DNA of 64,000 bases, from the NCBI RefSeq assembly GCF_053078305.1, contig NZ_CP166879.1, one strand, 5' to 3'. Positions 5,504 through 25,727 of this stretch are shown piece after piece. Positions within the stretch are counted from its first letter, which is position 1. Each line of letters starts with the position of its first letter. The notes under the pieces were generated by a model that saw only the letters and a list, made by a program, of their open reading frames with translations, was not told where the DNA came from and ran no database searches. Made by a program: the position numbers and the translations under genes.

Positions 5504-5530
5504 CAAAAAAGCCCCGGACATTCCGGGGCT
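5504..5530 (-). terminator. Rho-independent terminator downstream of the lipoprotein gene
   Basis: Minus-strand hairpin AGCCCCGG-AATG-CCGGGGCT followed by TTTTTTG, just 3' of the stop at 5541. Confidence 0.6.
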
Positions 5531-5540
5531 ACACTGCATA

Positions 5541-6314
5541 TTAACGAACGCTCTGTCCGGTTATTTCAACCCTGCGGTTGGGGCGCAGACATTCCTTCAG
5601 TGCTTCGCCCTCCACATCCGGGCAGAACACCACTGGTGCATCATATCCACGGCCCGTTGCATGTATCCTTTCAGCCCTGAATCCCCGGGCAATAAACCAC
5701 CCCCTGACTGATTCCGCCCGTTTCTCTGACAGGAGCCGGTTATACGCCTGCCCGCCAAGATGGTCCGTAAATCCTTCTATCTTCACCCCGACAACATGAC
5801 CCGCCTGAAACTTCTCTGCCACACGGGAAAGTGCATCACGCCCCCTCTCTGTCAGAGTCCATGAATCAAAATCAAATAATATATCACCGGGGACTGACTC
5901 CCTGTATTCTGCTGTCTCTGCCTCCGGCAGACAGTTTTCCGGCTTCCAGTAGAAAGAGCGGGCATCCATGTTCCGGTCAAACAGTATCTTGTACTGGCAG
6001 GTATAATCCCCCTCCGGTCCGGTAAAGTTGAACAGGTAATCCCATTCCCTTACACCAGACATCCCTTCAGCAAAGTGTGGTCTCCCCGCCAGCTGATAAA
6101 TCTGGTCCTTATTCATACCCGCCTTTATCTGACGTAACTTTTCTGGCAGTGGCCACGAACCTTTCTGTGTTCCGTCATGATTAAACTTCACCTTCTCCGG
6201 AGAAGGCCATACCACTTCTTCCGTCGTTCCTTCATCCGTGACATGACTCAGATTTCCACATCCTGCAAGCATCAGGGACAGCACACCCGTCATCATCATT
6301 CGACTAAATAACAT
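5541..6314 (-). CDS. Outer membrane lipoprotein with BamE/SmpA-like N-terminal domain and OmpA-type peptidoglycan-binding C-terminal domain
   Basis: Lipobox LMLAGC; OmpA-like motifs (GFTDHLGGQAYNRLLSEKRAESV, NRRVEI); AAGGAG RBS; sits 25 bp downstream of the adhesin gene on the same strand. Confidence 0.8.
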   Translation of the reverse strand: MLFSRMMMTGVLSLMLAGCGNLSHVTDEGTTEEVVWPSPEKVKFNHDGTQKGSWPLPEKLRQIKAGMNKDQIYQLAGRPHFAEGMSGVREWDYLFNFTGPEGDYTCQYKILFDRNMDARSFYWKPENCLPEAETAEYRESVPGDILFDFDSWTLTERGRDALSRVAEKFQAGHVVGVKIEGFTDHLGGQAYNRLLSEKRAESVRGWFIARGFRAERIHATGRGYDAPVVFCPDVEGEALKECLRPNRRVEITGQSVR

Positions 6315-6338
6315 TACATTTCTCCTTGCTTTTCCCTG

Positions 6339-9300: not shown

Positions 9301-10670
9301 GAAATCTCCAGTTTATCTCCAGCCACCTGGGTTTTTATTGGGCCTTTGCCAGTGATTTCGACATTGTCACCAAGACTCTTCGTCAGCGTCTTACCATCTC
9401 CACCTTTAATTTTGATGGCATCATTTTTTATTTCATTTTTCAGCGTTGTTCCGTCAATCGTCATTCCTTTATCATTAACAGTAACTGCAATATCTCCATC
9501 ACCTTTAACAGTTAAAGTGTTACCATTCTTATTATCCTTCCCACCATTAATAGTCGCAGAACCTCCCTTATCATCCTTTAGCGTCCACGTCGGATTAATG
9601 GCATCAAGGTCATCTTTCAGTGTCTTCGCTATCGCATATAACTGACTACCGTTAATGGCATCTGTACTTGTGTCAGAAATCGCACCCGCCCCCACGTTAA
9701 CAATCTGACGCTCTTTACCCGCATCACCAACAGATACTACTGATGCTGCGTTATTTCCGGCAAAGCCACTATATGTGACTTCCGCGCCTCTTTTAGTTCT
9801 GACCTTAGCCTCTGTTACTTTTTGTGCCTGCTTATCCCTGGAGTCAGCGCCGATGGACACGTTCCCCTTTGCGACAGTAACGGTTGCTCCATGCCCCAGG
9901 GCAACCGTTTCATTCTGAGCGGCATTTGCCTCTGAACCAACAGCAAGAGCATCGTTTTTATTTGCAGAGGACTGACTACCAACGGCCAGAGCATTACCGG
10001 CATTAGCCAGCGCATTAAAACCAACCGCAGTCGCCATATCCCCTTTAGCTTCCGCCGTGGCTCCAATTGCATTCGAGGCCATCCCCTCAGCAGAACTCAC
10101 CGAACCAAGCGATACTGACAATTCGCCTTTAGCAAAAGTTCTGCTGCCCAGCGCAATACTGCCATCCCCCTGCGCTTCCGATGCAAGATAGCCATTCTCT
10201 ATTTTTTCCCGACCATAAGTCTTACCATGCAAAGGAGTTAAATCATCCCCACCAATAACAATAGCCCCCCATCCGGTAGCTTTGGTATCGCCACCTATTG
10301 CAATTGACTGTTCTTTAGTTGCTTTCGTTTTCGCTCCTATCGCAATAGACTCGCCTGTGTACAAACCTTCCTTCGTGCTAATGTCACCTCCAGCCTCTGC
10401 ACTGGTACCAATCGCGATAGAGTTACGTCCTTCAGCCACCGGTGATTTATGGTCGAAATTAATTCCCTTTGATTCATCTTTTGCTGTAAATTTCGTTGTA
10501 CCTATTTCAATGCTCTTCCAGTCATCGCCATAGACATCATGGCCAAGGCTGGTTTCATCAACTTCAACAGTTAACTTATTTGTATCTGCCTGAGCACTGA
10601 CCTGTGATATGGATGCCGGATTAAGAACAAGTGATATGGCTATACAGATATGTTTTTTTCTGAGGTTCAT
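6339..10670 (-). CDS. Trimeric autotransporter adhesin (type Vc, YadA-like anchor)
   Basis: 1443 aa from ATG at 10670 (AAGGAG RBS); repeated neck/head motifs (DAINGSQL, DAVNGSQL, NVSQLN); C-terminal anchor ending GNFSVGAGVGWQW. Confidence 0.9.
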   Translation of the reverse strand: MNLRKKHICIAISLVLNPASISQVSAQADTNKLTVEVDETSLGHDVYGDDWKSIEIGTTKFTAKDESKGINFDHKSPVAEGRNSIAIGTSAEAGGDISTKEGLYTGESIAIGAKTKATKEQSIAIGGDTKATGWGAIVIGGDDLTPLHGKTYGREKIENGYLASEAQGDGSIALGSRTFAKGELSVSLGSVSSAEGMASNAIGATAEAKGDMATAVGFNALANAGNALAVGSQSSANKNDALAVGSEANAAQNETVALGHGATVTVAKGNVSIGADSRDKQAQKVTEAKVRTKRGAEVTYSGFAGNNAASVVSVGDAGKERQIVNVGAGAISDTSTDAINGSQLYAIAKTLKDDLDAINPTWTLKDDKGGSATINGGKDNKNGNTLTVKGDGDIAVTVNDKGMTIDGTTLKNEIKNDAIKIKGGDGKTLTKSLGDNVEITGKGPIKTQVAGDKLEISAETASLPVNGGNGKITVNNGDGDKLVTAKNIADAINQSGWKIKADKDTGGVIEGNGQGTETLIKPGDMVTLKAGKNLSVKQSGGDFTFSVIDTPSFSSVQLNGKGNNGSVTLSSEGNKLTLSGGNGAGQNGVVISGVASGLEGKELSTLTNTDKEMKNAASVADLKTAIDGVSSSMQGAGFALKDSDDKEVKQSLGQAIKVSGDSNITTTAITNGDKGLKISLNNDLSVGSNNTPGSIKVNGADGKEAVSLNGQDGTIKLTSSPAAGGKSASATIAVNAGKGGLTDAAGTTKTRLTYTPDGKSPAEELATMNDGLSFEGDDGKVIHKKLNEKLTIKGGAEKNAEVTDGNIRVDNDNGGLLVRMTRNLRDLASAVFGTGGQITTVNDKGITITTPAAGGGQGNTVSLTGSGLNNGGNQITSVASGLNGTALADAGGDVLNNAANIGDLKNALRDSSAALVNTGFGLQADDGSKVNTSLGKHITVGGDGQNISTTVQNGSLTVRLADNIRLGDDGSVSVGGTRMDKNGLTIKDGPSVTVNGIDAAGRVISGVKDGVNDQDAVNVSQLNREISQATAATTWALKTESGDEAVAVSSQTVEVRHGQNTRVSAISKDDKGNYSYEIDVTGIPVEYTDSQGNPLVNIGGRFYTQTEDAATGKLTMTPAEPARVRISSEQPLVLTNVAAGNVSPVSTDAVNGSQLASAARIAGGDNVVWKDGKAALAPDTFSELTTAGGGKTTVNGGVHKTPDNVADAVNMLNREGTKYFKAASSGQAAKAEGRDSIAVGQGAVSRGQNSIAMGNGAEVTRQAAAGSVAVGSHARAGRANTGTYALNGQAVAGRTGSDTAVVSFGQPGQERQLQSVAPGVLSANSTDAVNGSQLHATNRQVAGNTQAINTLGNKFSQLSYRVEELNRDIRGVGASAAAMSGIPQAYLPGKSLMGLGVGGYGGESAIAIGVSRISDNGKMIMKLNAGQNTRGNFSVGAGVGWQW

Positions 10671-11307
10671 ATATACCCTCTTTTCTCCTTTATTTTCTTC
10701 CACTCAGTCGGAATAGCATAAAAATCATGCATGAATATTATGTAAGGTGGACTACCTTCATTTCTTCAGCATCCATTTTTTATAAAGCCAGAAGTGAACA
10801 AAACGGGAACCATTAAAAAGCAGACAAAAGGCAATAAAGTGATTTATAATAATGCAAACATAAAACATATTAAGTTTAAGTAAACTACCCGACATTACGC
10901 GTTACAGCAGAATGCAGGTACACTACCTGCCATTGCCTGACGCACTGGCGAAGGCAGTAAAAATGAGATACATTTCACTTCGCAGCAAAAAAAACGAAAT
11001 CCTGCAATTTTTCTGATTTTACTGACAGAAAAGCCCGAGAGTTAAATTTAAATAACTTAAAAGATTCTGTGGTATAATCAGGTTCATACAGGCCTGATTG
11101 TTTCACAGGAAATTAAATCTTTTAAATCAACAGGCTATGGAGGTGTAATGGTGATGAATTGTGTAAAGATAGAGTGTGAGTATAACTGGAGTAATAAAAC
11201 CAAATTAAAATTATCAATATTTAACAAATGTAATTTATTAAGTTTATTTTTATCAAAATTAAAAGCATTACAACCTGGAAGCTGACGTTACTGATTACTA
11301 TACTGGT

Positions 11308-11343: not shown

Positions 11344-13392
11344 TCAGAAGGATATTCTTACATTAGCCCAGTAACGACGTCCTTCATCGACCTGCCAGTT
11401 ACCATCAATGGTATCGATATCTTCGCTCTTTCTGTCTGTGACGTTAAGTACGGCAAAATTAATCAGCGTGCCTGGCAGGAACTGGTAATTCATACCAATA
11501 TCCATAGAAGTGAATCCATTACGAACACGGGGAACCTTGGCACCATTTCTTTGTGCTGCCCAGATTTGTTTTCCTGTATAATTCAGAGATGAATAAAATG
11601 TAATATCCTGAGTGTAATCCCATTCCAGTTTTGCATTGGCTGCATGTCTGGGAGTTCTTTCCAGAGGTTCCCCTTTCAGCGACTTGCCATTGAGACTTTC
11701 GTCATCGCTTTCTCGACGGGAGTCAGTGAATGTATAGTTTGCAGATACACGCCATTTATCATACACAGGAATCTGAGTTGCAAGCTCCACACCTCTGATA
11801 TTTGCCTCACCCACATTATCATAAATAAAAGTGTTTAGCCCAGTGACTGGATCTTTTGTGCCTATATCGTAACTGGTCAGCTTATTTTTAAAATCTGTAT
11901 TAAACAGAGTCGCGCTTGCTGAAAAACCACTGTCATTATTATAAATAATACCGATCTCTTCGGTTACACTGGTCTCCGGTTTCAGGTCCCTGTTTCCATA
12001 CATAATAGAGGCACCACCCTGCGTCAGTGTTCCAAATCCAGGACTGACCTCACGAATCGAAGGGGCCCGAAATGCTTTTGCGATCCCTCCTTTGAGAGTG
12101 AGATTATCGGTCAGGTTATAAACAGCATACAATCTTGGATTCCAGTAACTGCCATAGATTTCATGGTTATCGAGGCGCAACCCTCCAGTCAGGGCGAGAG
12201 AATCCGTTGCAGCATATTCATTTTCTATAAAAACAGCTTTCTGTTTAACTGAAACAGACTGTGTTTCTGTCGTTTTTTTACCTGTGGCTGAGTCATCACG
12301 GAGTTCTGCATGCTGAAATTGACCTCCGATGGTCAGCACATTTTCCGGCAGAAATGCCGTCACTTTTGCATCTATGATCGTGTTGGTTATTTCCGGTTTT
12401 CTTGACTCGTAATTAAGATCCCAATGATTATATTTATCTTTTTTACCAGATTTAACCTCACGAATAACTTTCTCCTGATAAACAGCAATTTCAGGATGCA
12501 GTATTTCGCCCTGGGCATTCCATGCTGCTACCCAGTGACTACGTGAGTTATGTGTTTCTCTTTTACTGTTTGGTTGTTTAAGATTTCCCCGCATAGTCCA
12601 GGCATCAAGAGAATCACCAGGTGTTAATGTATGTTCCTGGTTATTTTTTCCGTATTCAAAAACAAACTTCTGGCTTTCAGTCGGAGTAAACTGGAGTGTT
12701 GCCGTTATATTCTTATTATCTTTTGCTGGTGTTCCCTGAGAGATACTATCTTCCTTGCGATAGTTCATTCCTCCATATAACTGAAGACCAAGTTTATCCT
12801 TAACCAATGGGCCTGACAGGTAGAAGTCATTCGTGGTTGAGTTACCAAATTTCCCATGTTCCTGAATAATTCCCCCAAGCCCAAGTACGCCATCCCATGT
12901 CTGGTTATTAACAGGTTTGGTTATGATATTAATAACTCCTCCGATAGCATCGGAACCATACAGGGAAGACATAGGGCCACGTATAACTTCAATACGCTCA
13001 ATTGCTTCCACAGGAGGGATAAATCCGGCTTCAAAACCGCCGCTGCCGTTTGGTCTGGATTCCCGACCACTCTGACGTCGTCCATCGACCAGAATCAATG
13101 TATAATCGCCACTTAACCCACGTATACTGATATCCGGTTTTTCATTCCCACCGGTGATACTAATCCCTTCAACATCTTTTACCGCATCGACCAGGTCTGA
13201 AACCGGTTTTTTTTGCAGTTGCTCTGAAGTAATGACTGAAACACTGGCCGGTGCATTTCTGAGTTGCTGAGTGAAGCCGGAGGCAGTAACAACAAGCGTA
13301 TCTTCTTTTTTATCAGAACTGGCATAACCTGATGATATGACTGCAGAACATATCACGGCAATGCCCGGAGCAATGATATATTTGTTCTTCAT
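11344..13392 (-). CDS. ireA: TonB-dependent outer membrane siderophore receptor, IreA-like
   Basis: 682 aa from ATG at 13392 (RBS AAGGGA); signal peptide, plug and beta-barrel features, C-terminal aromatic residue; N-terminus matches my recollection of E. coli IreA; Fur box upstream. Confidence 0.8.
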   Translation of the reverse strand: MKNKYIIAPGIAVICSAVISSGYASSDKKEDTLVVTASGFTQQLRNAPASVSVITSEQLQKKPVSDLVDAVKDVEGISITGGNEKPDISIRGLSGDYTLILVDGRRQSGRESRPNGSGGFEAGFIPPVEAIERIEVIRGPMSSLYGSDAIGGVINIITKPVNNQTWDGVLGLGGIIQEHGKFGNSTTNDFYLSGPLVKDKLGLQLYGGMNYRKEDSISQGTPAKDNKNITATLQFTPTESQKFVFEYGKNNQEHTLTPGDSLDAWTMRGNLKQPNSKRETHNSRSHWVAAWNAQGEILHPEIAVYQEKVIREVKSGKKDKYNHWDLNYESRKPEITNTIIDAKVTAFLPENVLTIGGQFQHAELRDDSATGKKTTETQSVSVKQKAVFIENEYAATDSLALTGGLRLDNHEIYGSYWNPRLYAVYNLTDNLTLKGGIAKAFRAPSIREVSPGFGTLTQGGASIMYGNRDLKPETSVTEEIGIIYNNDSGFSASATLFNTDFKNKLTSYDIGTKDPVTGLNTFIYDNVGEANIRGVELATQIPVYDKWRVSANYTFTDSRRESDDESLNGKSLKGEPLERTPRHAANAKLEWDYTQDITFYSSLNYTGKQIWAAQRNGAKVPRVRNGFTSMDIGMNYQFLPGTLINFAVLNVTDRKSEDIDTIDGNWQVDEGRRYWANVRISF

Positions 13393-13413
13393 AAATTTCC
13401 CTTTTCTAAAATC

Positions 13414-13432
13414 GTAATGATAATGATTTGCG
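13414..13432 (-). promoter_or_regulatory. Fur box upstream of the ireA-like gene
   Basis: AATGATAATGATT core matches 12 of 13 positions of the Fur consensus core AATGATAATCATT, 22-40 bp upstream of the start codon. Confidence 0.5.
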
Positions 13433-14158
13433 TTAGCAAGAAAAAATTTACAATGAACAGAAAGGAAGGTAAATAACATTTAGCTCATTCAGGTAACACT
13501 TTGAACCTGTCCGACTTGATGAGAATCAGCCCCTTTCTACGAGGGACTCCTTACTGTATAATTTATAGTCCTGTCGAAGAGGTAAAATCTTTCAACCGGA
13601 TATCTCCATAAACAGCATTCCAGTAAATCAAGCAAGAGTGAACAGGAGACTGGTGCTGTTTATTACGGTATGCTTGTCCGATGTGGTGGAAAATAAAAAT
13701 GGGCGACTGACCAGATATGGGAGTCTCCGGTCAGTCATTCGCTTGTAGATGCAGGACATAAGCGAACCAAGGCCCACTGCTTCTGCGCAAAAGCAAGGGG
13801 GAGTTTACCCTGGTAGATTGAGTTTCGCGTCACTGACCAGTCAGAGCTTCAGACTCATCTTACACCACTAACCCCCTTACCACTCCTGAATCTTCCCTCG
13901 GCAACAGCCAAGACAGTATCGTACTGTTCACCACCATCTTTTCCCGTGAATGACAGTAAGTGCAAAGCCCCAATATAAATCAGTACTTCCGATGACAGAC
14001 AGTGAAGGCGTAAGGTGAAATATGCACGTAAGGCAGTATGACTTTCCGTGAGACAGATGCTGTCCAACGTGGGATATTTAATGCGGGTTAACATCGTTGT
14101 CAGAGCCGCATGGGTGAGCTGTTGCTACCCCCCTGGAATTTCCACCACGGAGGCCAGC

Positions 14159-15245
14159 ATGAACAACAATAACATGTTGTACGTCGAATTAGATGTTCAC
14201 AAAGAATCGATTACTGTCTCCTATGCTATCAATTCAGAACCTGTTGAACTGATGGGTAAAATTAGCACATCACCTACTGACATTCATAATCTTTATCAAC
14301 GTATCAGGTCAAAGTCATCGCAGGTCAGTATCGTTTATAAAGCGGGACCCTGTGGTTATGGACTTTATCGTCGGCTGGTGAAATCCGGTTTTGACTGCAT
14401 GGTCTGCGCCCCCTCACTTATCCCGAAAAAACCGGGGGAGCGGGGTAAAACCGACACCGTGATGCCATCAGACTTGTGCGTTCACTGCGTGCAGGAGATC
14501 TTTCTGCTGTCTACGTATCCGGCGTTGAAGATGAGGCATTCCGGGATTTGGCCCGGGCATGGGCATCTGCCCGCGATGATTTACGGCATGCAAGGCAACG
14601 TCTGAAATCGTTTCTTCTGGTTCATGGGGTCCATTATGTCGGGCGAGCAGATTGGGGCCCTGCACACCGACACTGGCTCAGCAAATACTCATTCGAAAGT
14701 CCCTGGCGACAATTAGCTTTTGACGAACACCGTTGTACAATAGAAGACCGGCAGGCACAATGTGAACGGCTGGAATCCGCCCGAAGGAGGCCGTTACCGA
14801 ATGGAGGCTGTATCCGGTAGTAGAGGCGCAGCAAGCCATGCGAGGGATTCAGTTTATTACTGCGGTTGGATTAATTTCTGAACTGGGTGATCTGACCCGT
14901 TTTGAACATCCACGACAACTGATGTCATGGTTTGGTATCACGCCATCAGAATATTCATCGGGTGGAAGCAGACATCAGGGCAGCATTACCAAAGCCGGAA
15001 ACAGCTATGCCAGAAAGCTATTGGTTGAGGCAGCGTGGAGTTACCGGCATCCGACACGCATCAGTCCGGCAATACAAAAAATCAGGAAAATTTACCCCGC
15101 CCCGTCATTGACAGAGCATGGGATGCTCAACTCAGGCTTTGCAAGAGGTCTCGAAAACTTCAGGCCAAAGGAAAGAATGTCAATATTACAATTGTCGCTG
15201 TCGCACGTGAGCAGGTGGTTTTATCTGGGATATGGGGCGGGATAG
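14159..15245 (+). pseudogene. IS110-family transposase pseudogene (at least two frameshifts)
   Basis: Transposase-like translation is split over three frames (ORFs 14048..14605, 14476..14820, 14838..15245) with consecutive segments MLYVELDVHKESITV..., ...AVYVSGVEDEAFRDLARAWA..., ...FITAVGLISELGDLTRFEHPRQLMSWFGITPSEYSSGG... Confidence 0.7.
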
Positions 15246-15368
15246 CCACGTTTGTCGCACAATAACCACAATGTCACAAATAAAGAATGAGGATAACCAG
15301 TTCCCTGAAGGTGACGTAGCTCAGAACAAGAGTAACTCATGTTAGCTGTCTGGCGATGGCTGAAGTGG

Positions 15369-15686
<318 letters not shown>

Positions 15687-15693
15687 CTAAGAG

Positions 15694-16371
15694 TCAAGAC
15701 GTTATCGGGATGCAGTTAACATGCCTGTTTTGATTTCGTAGTAATGTATAAACTTCGCGTGAGATATAGCGCTTCAGACAGCGTATTGCTTCCATTTTTG
15801 TATGTCCTTCGGCTACTCGCCTGGAGACATATTCCTTTGTTTTATCGTCAGTTTGTAAACATCCTATAGTGATGATGTAAAGTGCACTATTTGCAACACG
15901 CTCCCCACCCCGATTAAGTCGGTAATGGTTCGTTTTTCCAGAAGATAGGGGAAACTGGCTGACACCGCACAACGCCGCAAAACCTGATTCGGTTCTTAAC
16001 CGTTAGGGATTGTCTCCGGCAGAGATCAACAACTGCAAAGCGCTTTCGTATCCAACAGCATTACGTTTAATCAGTTCAGGTGCCAGTTCATCAACAATTG
16101 CCGCAATCATGACATCCAAGTTGGTGATTTCATCATGAAACTCGAAATAGCGTCGAACAAGGGATTTCAATGTAATGCGATAAACGTTGGTAACATTACT
16201 GTATTCACTGGCATCAGGCCTCCAGGATCCCAGAGTCCTGATAAGTTGCATATGTGTCATATTTCTGAGTTGTTCGAGTAATTCATCCGGTGCAGAGATA
16301 ATATAGGAATGGATAATCTGGAGAGCGCCTCTGCGGGCTGATATTGCGGTTTTGCGGCAAATTTTTAGCAC
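15694..16371 (-). pseudogene. Second transposase remnant in two fragments (IS110-family-like C-terminus)
   Basis: ORFs 16003..16371 and 15694..15972; the latter ends ...ANSALYIITIGCLQTDDKTKEYVSRRVAEGHTKMEAIRCLKRYISREVY, a pattern typical of IS110-family C-termini; broken frame. Confidence 0.45.
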
Positions 16372-16576: not shown

Positions 16577-17608
16577 TCATGTACTCTGACGTAATTCTAT
16601 CTGGTAGTTGAATTGCACGATACGCGACTCTTCTGATTCATCATGATTATTATTCAATAGTCCAATCAGCAGCTTACCCGTCTCTGTCCCCATTTTTTTG
16701 TAGTCAATACGGATGGATGTCAAGGTTGGGTGTGTTTGATCGCAACTGTCTGAACCGTCAAGACAAGCTACAGCGATATTTCCAGGGATTTTTAACAAAC
16801 GCCGCTGGCACTCAAACATGATACCCAGCGCAATCTCTTCGTGGCTGCAAATCACAGCATCCAGCTCTGGTTGTCGCAGTAATATCTCGTTTAATGCGTA
16901 ACGCCCCAATTGCAAACTTGCGGCACCCGGCATGGTGATAACAAGATCAGAGTTCTGGTAATAGCTCAGCATTGCTTTATGCCAGCCGTTCAGTTGCTGA
17001 CGTTGCAGGCGGTTGTCCATATGCGCACCGATAAATCCGATATTCTTATAACCCTGTTCCAGCATATGTTCGGTCAGTTTATGTGATGCTTCAAAAAATG
17101 CTGTTTCGATGGTAATTTGAGCCGGACTGAAAGGGGAACCGACAACGTTAATGGTAGGTATATTTGTTTTCTCGAGTATCTGGTGAGTTTTATCAGCCAA
17201 CTGAGAACCAAAAATAACTAACGCCGCCGGGTTACCTTGAAGAAGCGTCATCAGGATTTCAGCTTCTTTGAGCTGATTATACTCATGACACCCAAGCAGT
17301 AGCTGGAATTCATTTTTATTAAGCACCTGCTGCAACGACTGCATAAAGCGGGAGCTGGTTTTATCTGTCAGGGAAGGAACCAGTACGGCGACTGTATGAC
17401 TGTGACCAGATGCAAGGGCGCCAGCAGTTCTGTTGGGAATATAACCCAACTCTTCTACGGCCTGTTCTATCTTTTCCCTCAGCTTGTCAGAAACCTGTTC
17501 CGGTGTTCTCAGCGCGCGGGAAACGGTCATGGTTCCGACACCTGCAAAGTTAGCGACCTCCTGCAGCGTCACCCGTCCGGTACCACGGCGCTTACGTGTT
17601 TTTCCCAT
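16577..17608 (-). CDS. LacI/GalR-family transcriptional regulator
   Basis: 343 aa; N-terminal HTH (VTLQEVANFAGVGTMTVSRAL) plus periplasmic-binding-protein-like sugar-binding core; divergent from the PTS operon. Confidence 0.9.
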   Translation of the reverse strand: MGKTRKRRGTGRVTLQEVANFAGVGTMTVSRALRTPEQVSDKLREKIEQAVEELGYIPNRTAGALASGHSHTVAVLVPSLTDKTSSRFMQSLQQVLNKNEFQLLLGCHEYNQLKEAEILMTLLQGNPAALVIFGSQLADKTHQILEKTNIPTINVVGSPFSPAQITIETAFFEASHKLTEHMLEQGYKNIGFIGAHMDNRLQRQQLNGWHKAMLSYYQNSDLVITMPGAASLQLGRYALNEILLRQPELDAVICSHEEIALGIMFECQRRLLKIPGNIAVACLDGSDSCDQTHPTLTSIRIDYKKMGTETGKLLIGLLNNNHDESEESRIVQFNYQIELRQST

Positions 17609-17753
17609 TTCGACTCCATGGATAATTACAACCAGCTGTTTTCATTACTTTTATTTTACCATTACTCTTTCCAGTTTTTGCCCACGGTAGCAAATATCCT
17701 GTTGCATTGTATATGCAGGAACCGAATATAGCCAAAGCATGGCGGCAGAGAAA

Positions 17754-17801
17754 TGATAGCGCTATCACAAAGATCGGTAGCGTTATCAGATAGCGCTATC
17801 A
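17754..17801. promoter_or_regulatory. Three tandem LacI-type palindromic operator sites in the divergent promoter region
   Basis: TGATAGCGCTATCA (17754-17767, perfect 14-bp palindrome), CGGTAGCGTTATCA (17775-17788), GATAGCGCTATCA (17789-17801), between the regulator gene and the PTS EIIA gene. Confidence 0.55.
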
Positions 17802-17878
17802 AATGCGACAATCATCACATTAATTAATGCGTAAAATATCTACTCTCCTGTTAATTATCATCGGGAGTTATCAGTCGC

Positions 17879-18322
17879 ATGTTAAAAAATCTATTAAATA
17901 CAAAGGTCGTTCAGGTCGTGGAACAGGTCAAAGACTGGCGGGAAGCCGTGGCGATTTCATGCCGACCGTTGATTGAAAACGGTTCTATCGAACCACGTTA
18001 TGTTGATGCGATCTATCACTCTCACGACACTATCGGTCCGTACTATGTGGTTGGCCCTGGTATTGCGATGCCTCATGCGCGCCCGGAAGAGGGGGCTAAC
18101 AAGCTGTCATTAGCACTGACCCTGATCCCTTCAGGTGTGAATTTTGATGCCGATGAAAACGATCCAGTGAAATTACTGATTGTGCTGGCTGCAACCGACA
18201 GTACCAGCCACATTGAAGCGATTTCTCAACTCGCCAAGTTATTCGATAACGAAAAAGACATACAGGCTATTTTGACGGCCAAAACGACGCAGGACATTTT
18301 GTCTGTTATTGCGCGCTATTAA
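17879..18322 (+). CDS. PTS enzyme IIA component (ascorbate/mannitol-fructose type)
   Basis: 147 aa; phosphorylatable His region (GPGIAMPHARPEEG); first gene of a IIA-IIB-IIC operon. Confidence 0.85.
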   Translation: MLKNLLNTKVVQVVEQVKDWREAVAISCRPLIENGSIEPRYVDAIYHSHDTIGPYYVVGPGIAMPHARPEEGANKLSLALTLIPSGVNFDADENDPVKLLIVLAATDSTSHIEAISQLAKLFDNEKDIQAILTAKTTQDILSVIARY

Positions 18323-18337
18323 TCCTGAGGAACATTT

Positions 18338-18625
18338 ATGAAAATTACAGTGGTTTGCGGTAACGGCTTAGGCACCAGCCTGATGATGGAAATGAGCATT
18401 AAAAGCATTTTGAAGGATTTGTCCGTCAGCGCTGATGTTGATCATGTCGACCTGGGCTCCGCGAAAGGGACGCCGAGTGATATCTATGTCGGCACCAAAG
18501 ACATTGCCGAGCAGTTAGTCGCGCAGTCTGTCGCAGGCAAAATCGTCGCACTGGAAAATATGATTGATAAGAAAGCCATGAGAGAACGTTTATCCGTGGC
18601 ATTAACCGAATTAGGCGCACTGTAA
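18338..18625 (+). CDS. PTS enzyme IIB component (ascorbate family)
   Basis: 95 aa; N-terminal active-site Cys motif KITVVCGNGLGTS; RBS TGAGG. Confidence 0.85.
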   Translation: MKITVVCGNGLGTSLMMEMSIKSILKDLSVSADVDHVDLGSAKGTPSDIYVGTKDIAEQLVAQSVAGKIVALENMIDKKAMRERLSVALTELGAL

Positions 18626-18637
18626 GCTGGGGGCGAT

Positions 18638-19894
18638 ATGGATTTCTTTCGTTTTTTGATGAGCGATGTACTTTCCGAACCCGCAGTGCTGGTCGGTTTA
18701 ATCGCCCTGATTGGCCTGATTGCACAGAAAAAACCGGTAACCGAATGCATTAAAGGTACCGTCAAGACCATTATGGGGTTTGTGATTTTAGGCGCAGGGG
18801 CGGGTTTAGTTGTGTCGTCACTGAGTGACTTCGCAAACATTTTCCAGTATGCCTTTGGTATTCAGGGTGTAGTGCCGAACAATGAAGCCATTGTTTCCGT
18901 AGCGCAGAAAAGCTTCGGGAAAGAAATGGCGATGATTATGTTCTTTGCGATGGTTATCAACATTATGATTGCCCGTTTCACACCGTGGAAATTTATCTTC
19001 CTGACCGGTCATCACACGTTGTTTATGTCGATGATGGTAGCGGTAATTCTGGCAACAGCAGGCATGACCGGCATTACGCTTATAGCCGTTGGCTCTTTGG
19101 TTGTTGGCGTGGCAATGGTCTTTTTCCCGGCTATTGCGCATCCGTACATGAAGAAAGTGACCGGTTCTGATGACGTTGCCATCGGCCACTTCTCAACATT
19201 ATCTTATGTATTGGCCGGTTTCATCGGCAGCAAGTTTGGTAATAAAGAGCACTCGACTGAAGACATGAATGTGCCGAAAAGTCTGCTGTTCTTGCGCGAC
19301 ACGCCGGTTGCTATCTCTTTTACCATGAGCATAATTTTCCTGGTGACGTGCCTGTTTGCGGGTGCAGATGCGGTGAAAGAGCTTAGCGGTGGTAAAAACT
19401 GGTTCATGTTCTCTATCATGCAATCCATTACCTTCGCAGCTGGCGTGTACATCATTCTGCAGGGTGTGCGCATGGTGATTGCGGAGATTGTCCCGGCATT
19501 CAAAGGTATTTCAGACAAGCTGGTTCCGAATGCCAGACCTGCTCTCGATTGCCCGGTCGTCTTCCCTTACGCACCTAACGCTGTACTGGTTGGTTTCCTG
19601 AGTAGCTTTGCTGCAGGTTTAATCGGTATGTTCACGTTGTATTTGCTGAACATGATCGTGATTATTCCTGGTGTGGTGCCGCACTTCTTCGTAGGTGCAG
19701 CTGCAGGGGTATTCGGTAATGCAACGGGTGGACGTCGTGGTGCGATTTTGGGTGCCTTCGCTCAGGGCTTGCTTATTACCTTCCTGCCAGTATTCTTATT
19801 GCCTGTGCTGGGTAACATTGGTTTTGCTAACACCACCTTCAGTGATGCTGACTTTGGCGCACTGGGTATTTTGTTAGGGATTATCGTTCGCTAA
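18638..19894 (+). CDS. PTS enzyme IIC permease (UlaA/SgaT family)
   Basis: 418 aa polytopic membrane protein immediately after IIB. Confidence 0.9.
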   Translation: MDFFRFLMSDVLSEPAVLVGLIALIGLIAQKKPVTECIKGTVKTIMGFVILGAGAGLVVSSLSDFANIFQYAFGIQGVVPNNEAIVSVAQKSFGKEMAMIMFFAMVINIMIARFTPWKFIFLTGHHTLFMSMMVAVILATAGMTGITLIAVGSLVVGVAMVFFPAIAHPYMKKVTGSDDVAIGHFSTLSYVLAGFIGSKFGNKEHSTEDMNVPKSLLFLRDTPVAISFTMSIIFLVTCLFAGADAVKELSGGKNWFMFSIMQSITFAAGVYIILQGVRMVIAEIVPAFKGISDKLVPNARPALDCPVVFPYAPNAVLVGFLSSFAAGLIGMFTLYLLNMIVIIPGVVPHFFVGAAAGVFGNATGGRRGAILGAFAQGLLITFLPVFLLPVLGNIGFANTTFSDADFGALGILLGIIVR

Positions 19895-19907
19895 TATTTT
19901 GATGACA

Positions 19908-19960
19908 TTAATATCCTCCAGGATTTCAGGAACGTGGAGGATATTAATTCCTCTTATTTT
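19908..19960 (+). terminator. Rho-independent terminator after the PTS operon
   Basis: Perfect 13-bp inverted repeat TTAATATCCTCCA...TGGAGGATATTAA followed by a T-rich tract. Confidence 0.7.
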
Positions 19961-20260
19961 CTCCATTTTTCTTTCTTCCAGTCAGGACTGCATCTGATTA
20001 ATCGTAAGCGCTCCGGGAAGTACGTCGCGTAAGGATTATTTTACAGCTGAGAAGTTTCAGTGCAGCAGTTCATGCACACGGTTCGACGGCTAGTCATTGA
20101 TCTTCATAATTACCTCGCGTAAAAAACGGGGTAAGGCCGCTCATCCAGCGTCATCTCCACAGGTAATAATTCAACGCCAATGCCAGAAGAGTTCCTTACC
20201 GGAAGACGCCGTGATATACGCCCTTTGATCGTAAGCGTCAACGGAGCACCGTATTGACGC

Positions 20261-21853
20261 TTATTTATTGGTGAGTACTACGTTCCATGGCAAGAGTTCA
20301 TCAACTCGGTTGGAAGGCCATTCCGGCAGTACGCTCAGGATATGGCGCAGATACGCTTCCGGATCGATACCGTTCAGACGGCAGGTGCCGATCAGCCCGT
20401 ACAACAGTGCTCCACGCTCGCCGCCGTGATCGCTGCCAAAGAACATAAAGTTTTTCTTTCCGAGACAGACTGCACGAAGCGCTCTTTCCGCAGCATTATT
20501 ATCCGCCTCCGCCAGACCGTCATCACTGTAATAACAGAGGGCATCCCACTGATTCAGTACATAGCTGAACGCTTCGCCCAGTCTGGATTTTTTCGACAGC
20601 GTACCATTCTTCTCCACCATCCATTCATGCAGCGACGTCAGTAACACTTTGCTTCGCTGCTGCCTGACGGAAAGACGCTCTGACTCCGGTAATCCCCGTA
20701 TTTCATCCTCGATGGCGTACAGTTCACTGATTCGCTTCAGGGCTTCTTCTGCCTTCGCACTTTTGCTGCTGATGTATACATCGTGGATTTTTCGCCGGGC
20801 ATGGGCCCAGCACGCAACTTCTGTCAGTGCACCACCTTCACGTTCTGCACTGAACAACCTGTCGTAACCTGTGAACGCATCCGCCTGCAGGATACCCCGG
20901 AAGGGGCGGAGGTGTTGCTCCGGGTGTTTCCCCTGCCGGTTCGGCGAGTACGCGAACCAGACCGCTGGAGGAGATGACGAACCCACATTGCGATCATCCC
21001 GGACATACGTCCAGATACGCCCTGTTTTCGCCTTTTTCTGACCCGGTGCCAGTACCTTTACCGGTGTGTCATCAGTGTGAACCTTGCGGGTGTTCATTAC
21101 ATAACGGTACAGGGCATCATTCACCGGTGTCATTAACTGGCAGCACGCGTCAACCCAGTTGGAGAGTAAGGCCCGGCTCAGTTCGACACCCTTGCGGGCA
21201 AAGATTTCACTCTGACGATACAGTGGCAGATGTTCGCAGTATTTTCCCGTTAACACGCGGGCAAGTAATCCGGGGCCCGCGATACCACGCTCTATCGGGC
21301 GGGACGGCGCCGGTGCTTCAACGATGCAGTCACATTTTGTACAGGCTTTTTTTACCCGTTCTGTGCGGATCACTTTCAGGGCGCTGCTCACCAGTTCCAG
21401 TTGTTCTGCACTGACTTCCCCCAGATAATCCAGCTCACCGCCACACTCCGGGCAACAGCTTTCTTCAGACTCCAGACGGTGTATTTCACGGGGAAGGTGT
21501 GCCGGTAACGGACGACGATGGCGCGACTGTCGCAACTGGCGGGGAACCTGTGGATCGTCTTCCCGCCCACTGTAACGATCGCTGTCCTGTTCGCGTTGTT
21601 TCAGCAGGGCCTCAGCCTGTTCAACTTCACGACGCAGTTTTTCAGAACGGGTACCGAACAGCATCCGGCGCAGTTTTTCTATCTGAGCCCGCAGATGTTC
21701 TATTTCCCGTTCATCTTCTTCGATCTTTTCTTCGGCACGTGCCAGTGCAGAGCGCAGGAAGGCCTCCGTCTCTTCAACCAGACTCAGTTGCTGGTCTTTC
21801 TGACGGAGCTGGCTTTCCAGTTCTGCAATGCGAATGAGGTATTTCTGACTCAT
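20261..21853 (-). CDS. IS66-family transposase (TnpC / Orf3)
   Basis: 530 aa; N-terminal coiled-coil/leucine zipper and zinc-finger-like CxxC pairs (CPECG, CTKCDC) typical of IS66 transposases. Confidence 0.9.
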   Translation of the reverse strand: MSQKYLIRIAELESQLRQKDQQLSLVEETEAFLRSALARAEEKIEEDEREIEHLRAQIEKLRRMLFGTRSEKLRREVEQAEALLKQREQDSDRYSGREDDPQVPRQLRQSRHRRPLPAHLPREIHRLESEESCCPECGGELDYLGEVSAEQLELVSSALKVIRTERVKKACTKCDCIVEAPAPSRPIERGIAGPGLLARVLTGKYCEHLPLYRQSEIFARKGVELSRALLSNWVDACCQLMTPVNDALYRYVMNTRKVHTDDTPVKVLAPGQKKAKTGRIWTYVRDDRNVGSSSPPAVWFAYSPNRQGKHPEQHLRPFRGILQADAFTGYDRLFSAEREGGALTEVACWAHARRKIHDVYISSKSAKAEEALKRISELYAIEDEIRGLPESERLSVRQQRSKVLLTSLHEWMVEKNGTLSKKSRLGEAFSYVLNQWDALCYYSDDGLAEADNNAAERALRAVCLGKKNFMFFGSDHGGERGALLYGLIGTCRLNGIDPEAYLRHILSVLPEWPSNRVDELLPWNVVLTNK

Positions 21854-21883
21854 GACCGTTTTTATAATGCGGTCAGGATTTTT

Positions 21884-22234
21884 TTACAACATTGTCAGTG
21901 AGTTACGGCGGGATGTTTTTGGCTGACGCCAGTCCAGCTTATCGAGGAGCATTGCCAGTTGCGAGCGGGTAATGGATACCTTGCCGTCACGTACCGCAGG
22001 CCAGATAAACTGGCCTTCCTCCAGGCGTTTAGTGAACAGGCACAGACCATCAGCATCAGCCCAAAGAATTTTAACGGTGTCACCCCGTCGGCCACGGAAG
22101 ATAAACAGGTGACCGGAGAAGGGATTATCATTCAGCACATGTTGTACCTGTTCTCCCAGTCCGTTGAAGGATTTACGCATATCGGTAACGCCGGCAACGA
22201 GCCAGATACGGGTACCTGATGGGAGTGAGATCAT
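21884..22234 (-). CDS. IS66-family Orf2 (TnpB) accessory protein
   Basis: 116 aa, MISLPSGTRIWLVAGVTDMRKSFNGL...; overlaps orf1 by 4 nt. Confidence 0.9.
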   Translation of the reverse strand: MISLPSGTRIWLVAGVTDMRKSFNGLGEQVQHVLNDNPFSGHLFIFRGRRGDTVKILWADADGLCLFTKRLEEGQFIWPAVRDGKVSITRSQLAMLLDKLDWRQPKTSRRNSLTML

Positions 22235-22656
22235 CTTCCCCTCCCGGTCAGTTCACGGATCAACACCGTGAGCAGCTCTGGCGATGGATTTTCCAGCGTC
22301 ATGTTACCGTGACGGAATTCCACCTTGCAGGAGCTGGCACTGACTCTGGTCTGAGAGGTAGTGGATAAAGATGGCGCAATGGCCACCACAGGTTCTTTCT
22401 GCTCATCCGGCGTTATTTCTACAGGTAATAATTCAACGCCAGTGTCAGAAGAGGTCGTTACCGGAAGACGCCGCGAAACACGCCCTTCGTTCTGCCAGAG
22501 CCTGAGCCATTTGAACAGGAGGTTATCATTGATATCGTGTTCCCGGGCGATACGGGCAACAGAGGCTCCTGGTTGCAAAGCCAGTTTAACCATTTGAAGT
22601 TTAAAATTATTTGAAAATGATCTGCGGGGTTCTGCGGATAATGTTTTTTGCTCCAT
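22231..22656 (-). CDS. IS66-family Orf1 (TnpA) accessory protein
   Basis: 141 aa, MEQKTLSAEPRRSFSNNFKLQMVKLALQPGASVARIAREHDINDNLLFKW... Confidence 0.85.
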   Translation of the reverse strand: MEQKTLSAEPRRSFSNNFKLQMVKLALQPGASVARIAREHDINDNLLFKWLRLWQNEGRVSRRLPVTTSSDTGVELLPVEITPDEQKEPVVAIAPSLSTTSQTRVSASSCKVEFRHGNMTLENPSPELLTVLIRELTGRGR

Positions 22657-22708
22657 AACAGGCGTCCACTAGTTTGAAAAGGTGGGCACCTACGTTACCA
22701 ATACTGGC

Positions 22709-23003
22709 TTAATGGCTACATACGGCAGTCGGTTTACGCTTACCTTTGATCAGCCAGAGCCTGAGCCATTTGAACAGAAGATTATCATTGATATCATGCT
22801 CCCGGGCAATACGGGCAACAAAAACCCTTGGTTGTAAAGCCAGTTTAACCATTTGAAGTTTAAACTCATTTGAAAATGACCTGCGGGGTTCTGCGGATAA
22901 TGTTTTTTGTTCCATAACAGGCATCCACTAGTTTGAAAAGGTGGGCACCTACGTTACCAATACTGGCTTAATGGCTACATACGACGGTCGGTTTACGCTT
23001 ACC
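22709..23003 (-). mobile_element. Partial tandem duplicate of the IS66 end (5' part of orf1 plus terminal repeat)
   Basis: Sequence 22925-23003 nearly repeats 22657-22745; ORF 22709..22924 encodes a truncated Orf1 copy (MPVMEQKTLSAEPRRSFSNEFKLQMVKLALQP...). Confidence 0.7.
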
Positions 23004-23045
23004 AGAAAACTAATAGTGCTATATGCAATTTTTAATATTCAGACT

Positions 23046-25727
23046 TTAGCCTGACAGGCCTGACAAAAACGCGCCCAACTTCCCTTCTATATCACTGTCT
23101 ATAGTACGTAATCTTAGCAATGGCAGACCACATTTCTTCAGTATACTGTTTTTAAGTTCATCACGTTCAGCCTGGACACTGGTCAGATGATAGCCTCCAT
23201 CCACTTCAATAACCCCTAATGGAGTCTTCCCGACCTTATAGTAAACAACAAAGTCACAACTGGCCCGATTACGCATGAATAACAGTTCACGGTGAGTAAA
23301 ATCTCCCCGCTCCAGCAACACCAACTGATTCAGCGCTATTTGTGAATGAAACATCATGCTCCGATAACTATCCTGCGACAGGATATCCCGCAACAGGCAG
23401 GCCACAATCTGTTCTGACTTAAAGCGTGAATCATCTGAATTCAATCTACTATTCAGTCGTTCCAGTGATTTGTCATACTCACTGTACAGCAAATCAAATG
23501 CTGATATCACCGGGCTCTCGAAAATCTCTCCGTCATCAGCGTAGTATCTGATGTAACGAATCAGTGCCGCAATATGTCCAGCGTGGCGTTCAAATACATC
23601 ATTACCAGTCACCAACGTAAATTTGTTTCGGGCCCTTGAAACAGCGACATTCACCAGTTCAGGATTATCAACAAACGCGATATTCCGACTTTGCTGGCTG
23701 CTGCGTTTCTTATCCAGCACAGTGGAAAACACAATTTCATCGCACTCCCGTCCCTGAAATTTATGCACCGTCGATTTCACAAAATCAGCGGGCAGCACTG
23801 TTTCAGCCAGATTAACCTGTGCATTATATGGGGCGATATATCCCCTGCTACTTTCCTCATCCCAGTAATGTCCTTCCAGAGATTCAAGCTCCCTGAGATT
23901 TGAAAAATTACGGGTATGGTTTCCTTTTGCCGTGATGATCAGAGATAATGAGGCTTCACCTGAATCAAGCGTTAGCGGTATCAGAGCATTATCATAAAAC
24001 TGCTTATTACAAAATTGAATGATTTTAGGATGACAGCGATAATGCTCTTTAAGAAGAGTTACTGGCACCATATTCCTGAACGACATACAAACCGAATCAA
24101 GTAGACTATATTTCTCACAATTATAGTATTCTGCCGGTGGAGATGGGCTGTTCGGGAGTAATACAGGAACATGTGGAAGTTGCTTTCGATCCCCTACAAC
24201 GATTACATTACGGGCACATCCTAGTCCCAGAATGCCCGGAACAATATCCTGCTGTGAGGCTTCATCAATAATCACATAATCAAGAAGAGCCCCCTTACCG
24301 ATAGAGTTAATAATAGAATGCGTGCTGCTACCAATAACCGGAAAACGCTTTATAAAACGGTTAAATTCATCCCTGTATGTCTCTGCCGAGAATGAATTTC
24401 TTGTTGAAATATTTCTTCGCAGATGTTGTTTTAAATAAAGCACAGACCATGATGTCAGGCGCTCCAGTAAAATTTTAAAATCAGATTCCTTTAATACTTT
24501 CTCATATTCATTCAAAGAAATTTGTTTTTCCCGGATGGATTTTTCATAATAAGAAAGCTGAAGAGAAGTAAATAGTGCCAGCCTTCTCTCCGGAATCACC
24601 AATGGTTTGACTTTCAGTATCCTGAAGTTTAACAACAAATCAATTCTGTTTCTGAATCCAATCCGCCTGTCAGAAAGGTAATGAATATAAGCCATCAGGT
24701 CAGTTGTTTTTCGTGAGGAAAGTCGGTATTTGTGAGAAAAAAGCTCCTCCGGTCGAAGATTCTGACTCTGCCATTGCTGCAGGTATTTATACTCAACACT
24801 CAGTTCATTAATTTCTGCTTTTAACGAAGCAACCTGGTTGATAGCATTCAGGTGTTTTTTCACTTGTTGAAGTACATCATCAATCATATTTGCAGACGGT
24901 GAGTCAGGTAAGACTTCCTCAGAACGCGAAATCGACGTTGAAAAAAACTGTTGTCTGTTCTCCGTACTTCCCAGTCGTGCCACCACATATCCCAGTCGTT
25001 GTTTGTCCATTTTTTCATAAACATTACTGACAGCTGAGTTATTATTGGACAAAATTGCCACTGTTTTATTCTGAATTAATATATTGGCAACAATATTGAG
25101 AATAGTCTGTGTTTTACCTGTCCCAGGTGGTCCTTCAATAACTGAAATCTGTGAGGAAAATGCCCGTTCAACCGCCATTAACTGACTCTCATTCAGGCCA
25201 AACGGAAAAATCAACCCCCATGGCGAATCACGTTTTTTACTCTGTCCTGAACAGTATGCATGCAAGGCGGTATCCGGATGAGGAACTATTTTCTTTATCT
25301 GTCTGAGGATATTCTCATCGATATTTTTATTATTACCTCGAGCATAAAAAACACGTTCGTCAGCCACCCTGCACAAGTAATTAAACACGGCATGCTCTGT
25401 AAATGCTGAACACTGTTGAAAGTCAAGTCCGGTCGTTTTCATGATGTAGGGTCGTTCGCTCTCACGGTAATAAACAGCAGCATATTTATCACCATAGATA
25501 ATAACCCGTTCAGCCCGGGATGTTACAGCGTTCCCTTTCCTTTCGAGGAAAACATTTCGCAAAATTACAGTTGGCGTTATCTGACATACAGAAAGCGGAC
25601 GAGTATATTTTTTCCCGCTGCGAAAATGACAGGTCAGCATAACCTCTCCGTCATCATTTCCAGCCCACAGAGTCCAGTCGGTAATTTTATGAGTCTTATT
25701 TTCACCGTCAACACAAATCGTGACCAT
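23046..25727 (-). CDS. Superfamily-1 helicase fused to a C-terminal PD-(D/E)xK (DUF2726-like) nuclease domain; candidate defence protein
   Basis: 893 aa; Walker A GPPGTGKTQT, Walker B/motif II VIIDEASQ, further SF1 Upf1/DNA2-like motifs (VGDRKQLPHV, HYRCHPKIIQF, STVHKFQGRECD, VAVSRARNKF); C-terminal VIEVDGGYH...ERDELK...GLPLLRL; N-terminal ~180 aa unassigned. Confidence 0.75.
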   Translation of the reverse strand: MVTICVDGENKTHKITDWTLWAGNDDGEVMLTCHFRSGKKYTRPLSVCQITPTVILRNVFLERKGNAVTSRAERVIIYGDKYAAVYYRESERPYIMKTTGLDFQQCSAFTEHAVFNYLCRVADERVFYARGNNKNIDENILRQIKKIVPHPDTALHAYCSGQSKKRDSPWGLIFPFGLNESQLMAVERAFSSQISVIEGPPGTGKTQTILNIVANILIQNKTVAILSNNNSAVSNVYEKMDKQRLGYVVARLGSTENRQQFFSTSISRSEEVLPDSPSANMIDDVLQQVKKHLNAINQVASLKAEINELSVEYKYLQQWQSQNLRPEELFSHKYRLSSRKTTDLMAYIHYLSDRRIGFRNRIDLLLNFRILKVKPLVIPERRLALFTSLQLSYYEKSIREKQISLNEYEKVLKESDFKILLERLTSWSVLYLKQHLRRNISTRNSFSAETYRDEFNRFIKRFPVIGSSTHSIINSIGKGALLDYVIIDEASQQDIVPGILGLGCARNVIVVGDRKQLPHVPVLLPNSPSPPAEYYNCEKYSLLDSVCMSFRNMVPVTLLKEHYRCHPKIIQFCNKQFYDNALIPLTLDSGEASLSLIITAKGNHTRNFSNLRELESLEGHYWDEESSRGYIAPYNAQVNLAETVLPADFVKSTVHKFQGRECDEIVFSTVLDKKRSSQQSRNIAFVDNPELVNVAVSRARNKFTLVTGNDVFERHAGHIAALIRYIRYYADDGEIFESPVISAFDLLYSEYDKSLERLNSRLNSDDSRFKSEQIVACLLRDILSQDSYRSMMFHSQIALNQLVLLERGDFTHRELLFMRNRASCDFVVYYKVGKTPLGVIEVDGGYHLTSVQAERDELKNSILKKCGLPLLRLRTIDSDIEGKLGAFLSGLSG

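Follow-up and report, generated by a model that had tools for sequence, protein, structure and literature searches.

The vpe locus of extraintestinal pathogenic Escherichia coli was reportedly described by Martinez-Jehanne et al. in 2012 (Infect Immun 80:2655) as part of PAI-I of AL862/AL511. Its genes for the enzyme IIA, IIB and IIC components (EIIA, EIIB and EIIC) of a phosphotransferase system (PTS) are, as we take it, named vpeA, vpeB and vpeC; the regulator gene is here called vpeR. The GenBank accession for PAI-I AL862, i.e. the original vpe sequence, is GQ497943 (PMC3326304). In the literature, vpe has been linked to virulence, capsule and gut colonisation (PMC5382810; bioRxiv 10.1101/2020.08.12.249037; PMC6455142) as well as to kidney colonisation and sepsis, and the Vpe substrate has been given as an unknown carbohydrate (bioRxiv 10.1101/2020.08.12.249037). 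On the LAC island of Shiga toxin-producing E. coli (STEC) negative for the enterocyte effacement locus (LEE), vpe consists of four open reading frames (ORFs 34–37), followed by one ORF and a four-ORF deoK operon, with OI#138-like genes before vpe (PMC6455142). It also occurs together with deoK on ROD 40 (valS-fecE) of NCTC 86, a region labelled 'Vpe - pts system' in the supplement (PMC5382810). We found that a four-gene locus in a stretch of 64,000 nucleotides of contig NZ_CP166879.1 (RefSeq assembly GCF_053078305.1; this whole stretch is hereafter called the window) is this already described vpe locus, an intact copy and not a new system, and that it very probably specifies a self-contained, inducible, ascorbate-family PTS enzyme II complex with its own LacI-type repressor. 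Since vpe is already known to contribute to fitness and virulence in pathogenic E. coli, another copy adds little in itself.

Identity with the published vpe locus

The ORFs for the regulator, EIIA, EIIB and EIIC are all complete and full-length in the ORF list of the window. A preliminary description of this DNA, made from the letters alone, had listed the three PTS genes and a divergent LacI regulator, and all four were recovered at the coordinates it gave:

16577..17608, minus strand: vpeR, predicted LacI-family transcriptional regulator of 343 aa, divergent from vpeABC (Pfam LacI HTH and Peripla_BP_3/1)
17609..17878: divergent control region of 270 bp, with three putative LacI-type operator boxes and a vpeR promoter-like site
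17879..18322, plus strand: vpeA, PTS EIIA of 147 aa (PTS_EIIA_2, E 3.7e-36)
18338..18625, plus strand: vpeB, PTS EIIB of 95 aa (PTS_IIB, E 1.6e-12)
18638..19894, plus strand: vpeC, PTS EIIC permease of the L-ascorbate (SgaT/UlaA) family, 418 aa (EIIC-GAT, PF03611, E 4.8e-149)
19901..19953, plus strand: terminator-like hairpin, then a U-rich tract to ~19975 (RNA fold)

The window locus is 98.5% identical at the DNA level to the four-gene locus of ROD 40 in NCTC 86, with 97–99% identity between the proteins, and its best matches among complete E. coli genomes are annotated loci with 99.6% DNA identity. The order on ROD 40 is LacI-IIA-IIB-IIC, one transposase ORF, and then the deoK operon with its genes for an aldose epimerase, a permease, a kinase and a DeoR protein. 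The published vpe layout is reproduced by ROD 40 and by the loci of E. coli 2013C-3181 (L001) and 04-00955, the latter having OI#138-like fatty-acid/aryl-polyene genes directly upstream of vpe, as published. The preliminary description had noted only a resemblance to the vpe locus of extraintestinal pathogenic strains; the match is stronger, the locus being vpe itself. The names given to identical proteins in the databases are generic PTS or ascorbate labels without 'Vpe', and a literature search for vpeA, vpeB, vpeC and vpeR as gene names matched unrelated abbreviations only.

A search of 5426 complete E. coli genomes, in which a genome was counted as vpe-positive when at least 80% of the query was covered, found the vpe module in 935. 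The deoK operon lies directly downstream in 906 of these 935 genomes (~97%; vpeC-remnant-deoX junction). It is absent from the 64-kb window, as seen when 19895-23100 is compared with L001 15496-16500. The island context, i.e. remnants of insertion sequences (IS) and ireA, is kept in the window, and deoK adjacency is typical of the vpe locus, not defining. Compared with the published copies (PAI-I AL862/AL511, the LAC island and ROD 40), the window copy agrees in its four genes, their order and their orientation, and shares the IS66-derived remnant on the 3' side. It differs from them in that the deoK operon, usually next, is missing, that an extra intact IS66 element sits inside the remnant, and that the downstream sequence leads into AAA-helicase and type VI secretion genes, a vpeC-remnant-AAA-helicase junction present in just 2 of the 5426 genomes (04-00955 and VG38-53E1). 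In the window, vpe thus has a rare, rearranged setting that lacks deoK and contains a fresh IS66 insertion.

Permease family, binding pocket and control region

VpeC shares 30.7% identity with UlaA (E 6.5e-50) and has no match to SgcC or GatC at E < 0.01. VpeA is 37–39% identical to UlaC and SgcA, and VpeB 27% identical to UlaB. The NCBIfam model for 'PTS ascorbate transporter subunit IIC' (NF006919) was passed by VpeC with 627 bits (cut-off 380), whereas the score against the E. coli UlaA equivalog model (NF009549) was 590, under its cut-off of 890. Among solved structures, 4rp8 and 5zov were the sole matches of VpeC, and VpeA matched chain 3oxp with 239 bits. From these similarities, vpeABC is placed in the PTS L-ascorbate (SgaT/UlaA) family, TC (Transporter Classification) 4.A.7, with cognate EIIA and EIIB. 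Its earlier designation as an ascorbate-family permease is thereby upheld, and in the comparison with ula and sgc the homology pointed to no other PTS family.

Like UlaABC (SgaTBA) of TC 4.A.7, Vpe has IIC, IIB and IIA as three separate proteins, each in the same family as its Ula counterpart, with the phosphorylation motifs, the elevator hinge glycines and Arg288 conserved. However, the three components are only 27–38% identical between the two systems, the gene order is C-B-A in ula and A-B-C in vpe, the regulator UlaR is of DeoR type and that of vpe of LacI type, and the lactonase, decarboxylase and epimerase genes of ula are lacking in vpe. The sgc operon of E. coli K-12 (SgcA, SgcB and SgcC, galactitol-type) is, like vpe, an orphan PTS with no substrate assigned, and VpeA shares 38.7% identity with SgcA; it differs in having the epimerase SgcE, SgcQ, SgcX and the DeoR-type SgcR, and VpeC has no significant similarity to SgcC.

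The motif AMPHARPEEG of VpeA aligns with AMPHGRPEEG of UlaC, with His66 as the predicted phospho-histidine, and VVCGNGLGTS of VpeB aligns with AVCGNGQGSS of UlaB, with Cys7 as the predicted phospho-cysteine. The phosphorylated residues of UlaB and UlaC are established, and the roles of His66 and Cys7 in Vpe rest on them. For UlaA, 11 residues contacting vitamin C have been listed together with the roles of hinge and other residues, and Ala or Ser substitutions at the six of these positions given below as replaced in VpeC cripple binding (PMC6048161). VpeC conserves the hinge residues Gly58 and Gly286 as well as Arg288. Among the contacts it keeps His135, His194, Asp314 and Phe362 and has a conservative change of Ile358 to Val, but the other 6 of the 11 are replaced (T86N, Y87E, I136H, Q139F, Q195F and M410F/I/L). 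Five of these replacements recur unchanged in each Vpe ortholog checked, while the Met410 position varies between Phe, Ile and Leu. The full set of 11 contacts that would mark a UlaA equivalog is thus not conserved in VpeC as aligned, and we infer that VpeC is a working transporter with a different ligand. Since six of the 11 contacts are replaced, L-ascorbate is unlikely to be the substrate.

The possibility that Vpe is a second L-ascorbate transporter feeding the core Ula pathway (UlaG, UlaD, UlaE and UlaF) has in its favour the database name of VpeC as an ascorbate transporter subunit, the shared fold with its four retained contact residues, and the presence of the ula regulon elsewhere in E. 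coli. Against it stand the low identity to UlaA, the equivalog score well under its cut-off, the replaced contacts, five of them uniform among the orthologs, and a regulator that is LacI-type and not the DeoR-type UlaR; we consider it extremely improbable.

VpeR is a LacI-family member. All its best NCBIfam matches, i.e. GntR of the P. aeruginosa type (275 bits, cut-off 400), IdnR (208, cut-off 500) and GntR of E. coli (173, cut-off 433), are under the cut-offs, the identity to E. coli IdnR is 28%, and a structure named 'GntR' (3h5o) is its second-best solved-structure match. As judged from these scores, VpeR does not qualify as a GntR- or IdnR-type regulator, and the matches are too distant for transferring an effector. 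The control region between vpeR and vpeA contains the following sites:

17754-17767: O1, TGATAGCGCTATCA, a perfect 14-bp palindrome
17775-17788: O2, CGGTAGCGTTATCA
17788-17801: O3, AGATAGCGCTATCA
17735-17706, minus strand: vpeR promoter-like site (promoter scan)

In an alignment of eight spacers (the window copy, the NCTC 86 copy and those of six other genera), the 18-mer AATGATAGCGCTATCACA (17752-17769), which contains O1, is invariant in all eight with diverging flanks, O3 is nearly invariant, and O2 is found in 6 of the 8. The motif has no further occurrence within the window. The O1 palindrome has the form of a typical LacI-family operator, and the boxes are putative binding sites of VpeR.

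At the other end of the operon, the hairpin at 19901-19953 has a folding energy of -21.3 kcal/mol (z = -3.46), with none of 200 shuffles equally stable, and a terminator scan gave a match at 19936-19954. It is a credible intrinsic terminator. The 'strong terminator' of the preliminary description is right as to the hairpin but overstated as to strength, the U tail being rich but interrupted. No riboswitch or leader came up when the locus and its flanks were scanned against Rfam.

Taken together, a working model can be proposed. Without inducer, VpeR would sit on the palindromic operators (TGATAGCGCTATCA) of the divergent region and keep vpeABC repressed; with inducer, the genes would be transcribed to the hairpin after vpeC. 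Phosphate would pass from phosphoenolpyruvate to enzyme I and HPr, then to His66 of VpeA and Cys7 of VpeB, and finally to the carbohydrate held in the VpeC core domain, which VpeC would carry across the membrane by an elevator mechanism as in UlaA. As dedicated catabolic genes are never part of the cassette (see below), the phosphorylated product would then be passed to enzymes whose genes lie elsewhere in the genome.

Several points weigh against this interpretation of the locus. The identity with vpe was established through later papers naming the locus, not through the original sequence GQ497943. ROD 40 also holds a second, unrelated PTS (a MurR/RpiR regulator and a maltose/glucose-type IIC), and the vpe naming therefore rests on the four-ORF description, the distance of one ORF from deoK, and the gene names vpeA, vpeB and vpeC. 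Repression, inducer, phosphorelay and transport are all deduced from homology. Lastly, this copy lies in an IS-rich setting without its usual deoK neighbour, and the rearrangement may have polar or regulatory effects.

A stand-alone cassette and its possible substrates

Between the flanking IS elements, no kinase, epimerase, lactonase or decarboxylase gene was found. A scan with one genome per species yielded 131 relatives, of which the best 80 loci were kept, and all neighbouring ORFs of these 80 loci and of three further loci were clustered. Apart from the four Vpe proteins, no protein was common to more than four genera; the core genes ackA and pta came next in breadth of distribution. Neither ulaG, ulaDEF nor a DeoR-type UlaR gene was found at the window locus or at any orthologous locus sampled. 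Within Enterobacterales, Vibrionaceae and Aeromonas, about 20 genera have the four-gene cassette as a stand-alone unit. Outside E. coli, its chromosomal contexts are unrelated: in the order R-A-B-C, it is flanked by pta and modC in Yersinia, by pta and a NUDIX gene in Brenneria, and by yieH and phoU in Buttiauxella and Dryocola, and it occupies other positions in Photorhabdus, Proteus, Vibrio, Photobacterium, Edwardsiella and Erwinia. Since the cassette is bare across genera, its stand-alone nature, i.e. the lack of catabolic genes, is by this comparison an ancestral property and not an IS artefact.

The preliminary description had reported an absence of catabolic enzymes and proposed that enzymes with genes at other sites metabolise the substrate. 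The absence was seen both at the locus and across the ~20 genera, and the proposal is well supported by the stand-alone cassette. No catabolic genes belonging to the system adjoin it in complete genomes either, deoK being a separate deoxyribose operon and, among the genera sampled, a neighbour in E. coli only. Two ways of accounting for the missing genes were rejected: IS-mediated deletion, because the cassette is equally bare in ~20 other genera, and deoK as the missing catabolic partner, because it has its own permease and DeoR regulator and was never beside vpe in the genera sampled outside E. coli.

VpeC is 84–98% identical across ~22 genera of Enterobacterales, Vibrionaceae and Aeromonas, whereas VpeR falls to ~45% over the same span. 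Between the E. coli copy and those of Yersinia, Proteus and Vibrio, synonymous sites are saturated and the nonsynonymous divergence (dN) of vpeC is 0.03–0.09. This combination indicates an old divergence under very strong purifying selection on the permease, and not recent transfer. In Yersinia pestis NCTC5923 (L047, ~4000-7000), synteny with Y. similis is broken 68 bp upstream of vpeC, where an IS256-family-like transposase is located, and vpeC is split from vpeR, vpeA and vpeB; this has probably inactivated the cassette of the strain.

A regulator homolog accompanies the EIIABC genes in 20 genera and is found with the permease genes in 72 of the 80 species loci. The regulators of Pectobacterium, Erwinia and Winslowiella are longer, with ~396 aa (L020 8001-9191, L104 6001-7191 and L105 6001-7188). 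In Pectobacterium, the entire regulator sequence was inspected, and the extra length is due to a tandem duplication of the N-terminal LacI helix-turn-helix region, an architecture unusual for the LacI family. Six Xenorhabdus loci (L091, L093, L094, L098, L099 and L102) and that of Candidatus Fukatsuia symbiotica (L095) keep vpeABC, with 84–86% identity in EIIC, but the 7 kb upstream contain no VpeR homolog, suggesting that these insect-associated lineages have lost or replaced the regulator.

These comparative results, namely an ancient autonomous unit, a conserved EIIC, a pocket differing from that for vitamin C at six positions and fsa as the sole accessory gene, narrow the search for the substrate, whose identification could reveal a host-derived nutrient used during infection. 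Through homologs of the regulator, loci were found in Pectobacterium versatile (L020) and Winslowiella iniecta (L105) in which a 220-aa fsa gene directly follows vpeC on the same strand, with gaps of 54 bp and 18 bp, respectively, and with different genes flanking the vpeC-fsa pair. Both Fsa proteins pass the NCBIfam cut-offs for fructose-6-phosphate aldolase (FSA) and share 57–63% identity with FsaA and FsaB of E. coli. This aldolase is the only accessory gene seen with the cassette, and constitutes a modest new lead to the substrate.

One possibility, though an unlikely one, is that Vpe imports a ketose-type or an anhydro or deoxy sugar whose 6-phosphate serves as an FSA substrate, either as such or one step later. 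On the E. coli side, the core enzymes FsaA and FsaB would then be the 'missing' enzymes, possibly together with the YbiW/PflD glycyl-radical pathway. This reading would refine, not contradict, the model proposed above. The position of fsa in two genera with differing flanks and the clear FSA assignment speak for this idea, as does the Pectobacterium VpeC pocket, which equals that of E. coli VpeC at the checked positions except Met410 (Leu for Phe). The in vivo role of FsaA and FsaB has been called 'enigmatic' (PMC7767278), and E. coli has a known route from a PTS through anhydrohexitol-6-phosphate and YbiW/PflD to 1-deoxyfructose-6-phosphate (review PMC12441222), fsaA adjoining ybiWY and fsaB adjoining frw-pflDC. 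These clusters (ybiWY-fsaA and frw-pflDC-ptsA-fsaB-gldA, of the anaerobic 1,5-anhydroglucitol and 1,5-anhydromannitol pathways) combine a PTS with an FSA-type aldolase, as do the vpe loci of Pectobacterium and Winslowiella. They differ in that the Frw PTS is of fructose type and Vpe of ascorbate type, that they contain a glycyl-radical enzyme and the vpe cassette does not, and that fsaA and fsaB are not near vpe in E. coli. On the opposing side, no fsa was present within 7 kb of vpeC in the best 80 species loci and none in Erwinia, so that the link, seen in two genera, is confined to one sub-clade, and the regulator resembles those of sugar-acid and not of ketose systems.

About 2.4 kb from the Pectobacterium vpe-fsa genes (L020 11592-17030), there are genes for an 831-aa glycyl-radical enzyme, its activase, a short-chain dehydrogenase and a DUF386 protein. 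That this enzyme and activase complete a YbiW/PflD-type pathway was rejected: the identity to YbiW and PflD is 32–34%, three unrelated genes lie between, and the arrangement occurs at one locus only, so that it is probably unrelated and also counts against the FSA idea.

In a more specific form, Vpe would import a neutral ketose, deoxy or anhydro sugar from the host or its diet, e.g. a relative of 1-deoxy- or 1,5-anhydro-hexose, with the 6-phosphate being cleaved by FsaA/FsaB; this we regard as distinctly unlikely. Relatives of these hexoses occur in blood and urine. If true, such a cleavage would give a physiological role both to the virulence permease and to the 'enigmatic' FSA enzymes, and would explain the strong purifying selection on a catabolism-free cassette in ~20 genera.

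Alternatively, Vpe might be a PTS for a sugar acid or lactone (gluconate, gluconolactone or keto-gluconate), whose product, such as 6-phosphogluconate, is a central metabolite and hence requires no dedicated enzymes. The GntR and IdnR matches of VpeR are a weak hint in this direction, together with the 3h5o structure match, and the prototype substrate of the family, ascorbate, is itself a sugar-acid lactone; the stand-alone state of the cassette in all genera sampled would also fit. However, the regulator matches are well under their cut-offs and too distant for effector transfer, compared with UlaA, the pocket of VpeC has an additional glutamate (Y87E) and three additional phenylalanines, which would not favour an anionic ligand, and the sole accessory gene specifies an aldolase for ketose phosphates. 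We consider this alternative very unlikely.

Finally, Vpe could act mainly as a sensor whose phosphorylation state modulates capsule and virulence expression instead of supplying carbon. The absence of accompanying catabolic genes in every genus, the unusual conservation of EIIC (84–98% identity across three orders, with saturated synonymous divergence) and the reduced capsule of vpe mutants (PMC5382810) are compatible with such a role. Yet the locus is built like an ordinary inducible transporter for catabolism, with repressor and operators, all transport residues are kept, the fsa gene attached in two genera points to carbon flow, and a missing precursor sugar phosphate could explain the capsule defect just as well; a role of this kind appears highly improbable.

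Flanking elements and neighbouring genes

The preliminary description had placed the locus between transposase remnants on one side and IS66 on the other, which is correct, and both flanks were recovered:

14048..16371: left boundary, decayed IS elements (ORF list and RefSeq annotation of a 96.7% identical stretch in E. coli 2013C-3181, L001)
14048-15245: frameshifted IS110-family transposase
15369-15638: IS3-type integrase-core fragment
15694-16371: IS110-type fragments
20004..23002, minus strand: right boundary, a 485-bp IS66-derived remnant composed of 20004-20230 and 22744-23002, with GTAAGCG-type sequences at both ends and an orfA fragment
20231-22743: intact IS66-family element of 2513 bp with orfA, orfB and transposase genes (Pfam DDE_Tnp_IS66)

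The intact element is flanked by an 8-bp target duplication, CTTTGATC, at 20223-20230 and 22744-22751, and synteny with the 2013C-3181 locus ends precisely at 20230/22743. Other genomes have the remnant without interruption, annotated there as a 94-aa 'transposase'. The flank on the left, towards ireA, and the downstream junction match different sets of strains, and the region therefore looks like a recombinant formed at IS copies. No tRNA gene that could have served as an island integration site was found in the window. Weak matches to the Rfam family AfaR, a small RNA of PAI-I AL862, were detected on the plus strand at 22664-22753 and 22898-23093 (35.8 and 29.3 bits; gathering score 100); as they cover IS66-type ends, their most likely source is common IS66-derived sequence and not a gene for AfaR.

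An 893-aa protein with superfamily-1 helicase domains AAA_11 and AAA_12 and a C-terminal DUF2726 is encoded on the minus strand (23046-25727), between the IS66 remnant and the type VI genes; its domain composition recalls helicase-nucleases of anti-phage defence. It is followed on the same strand (~26000-56000) by a large type VI secretion cluster, including tssE, tssJ, tssG, tssF, tssA and an ImcF-type gene among others, which were recognised through the annotation of the homologous stretch in 04-00955. Upstream of the locus, all on the minus strand, are genes of virulence type, namely those for an OmpA/BamE-domain protein (5541-6314) and a 1454-aa YadA-like trimeric autotransporter adhesin (6339-10703), followed by the siderophore receptor gene ireA (11344-13479).

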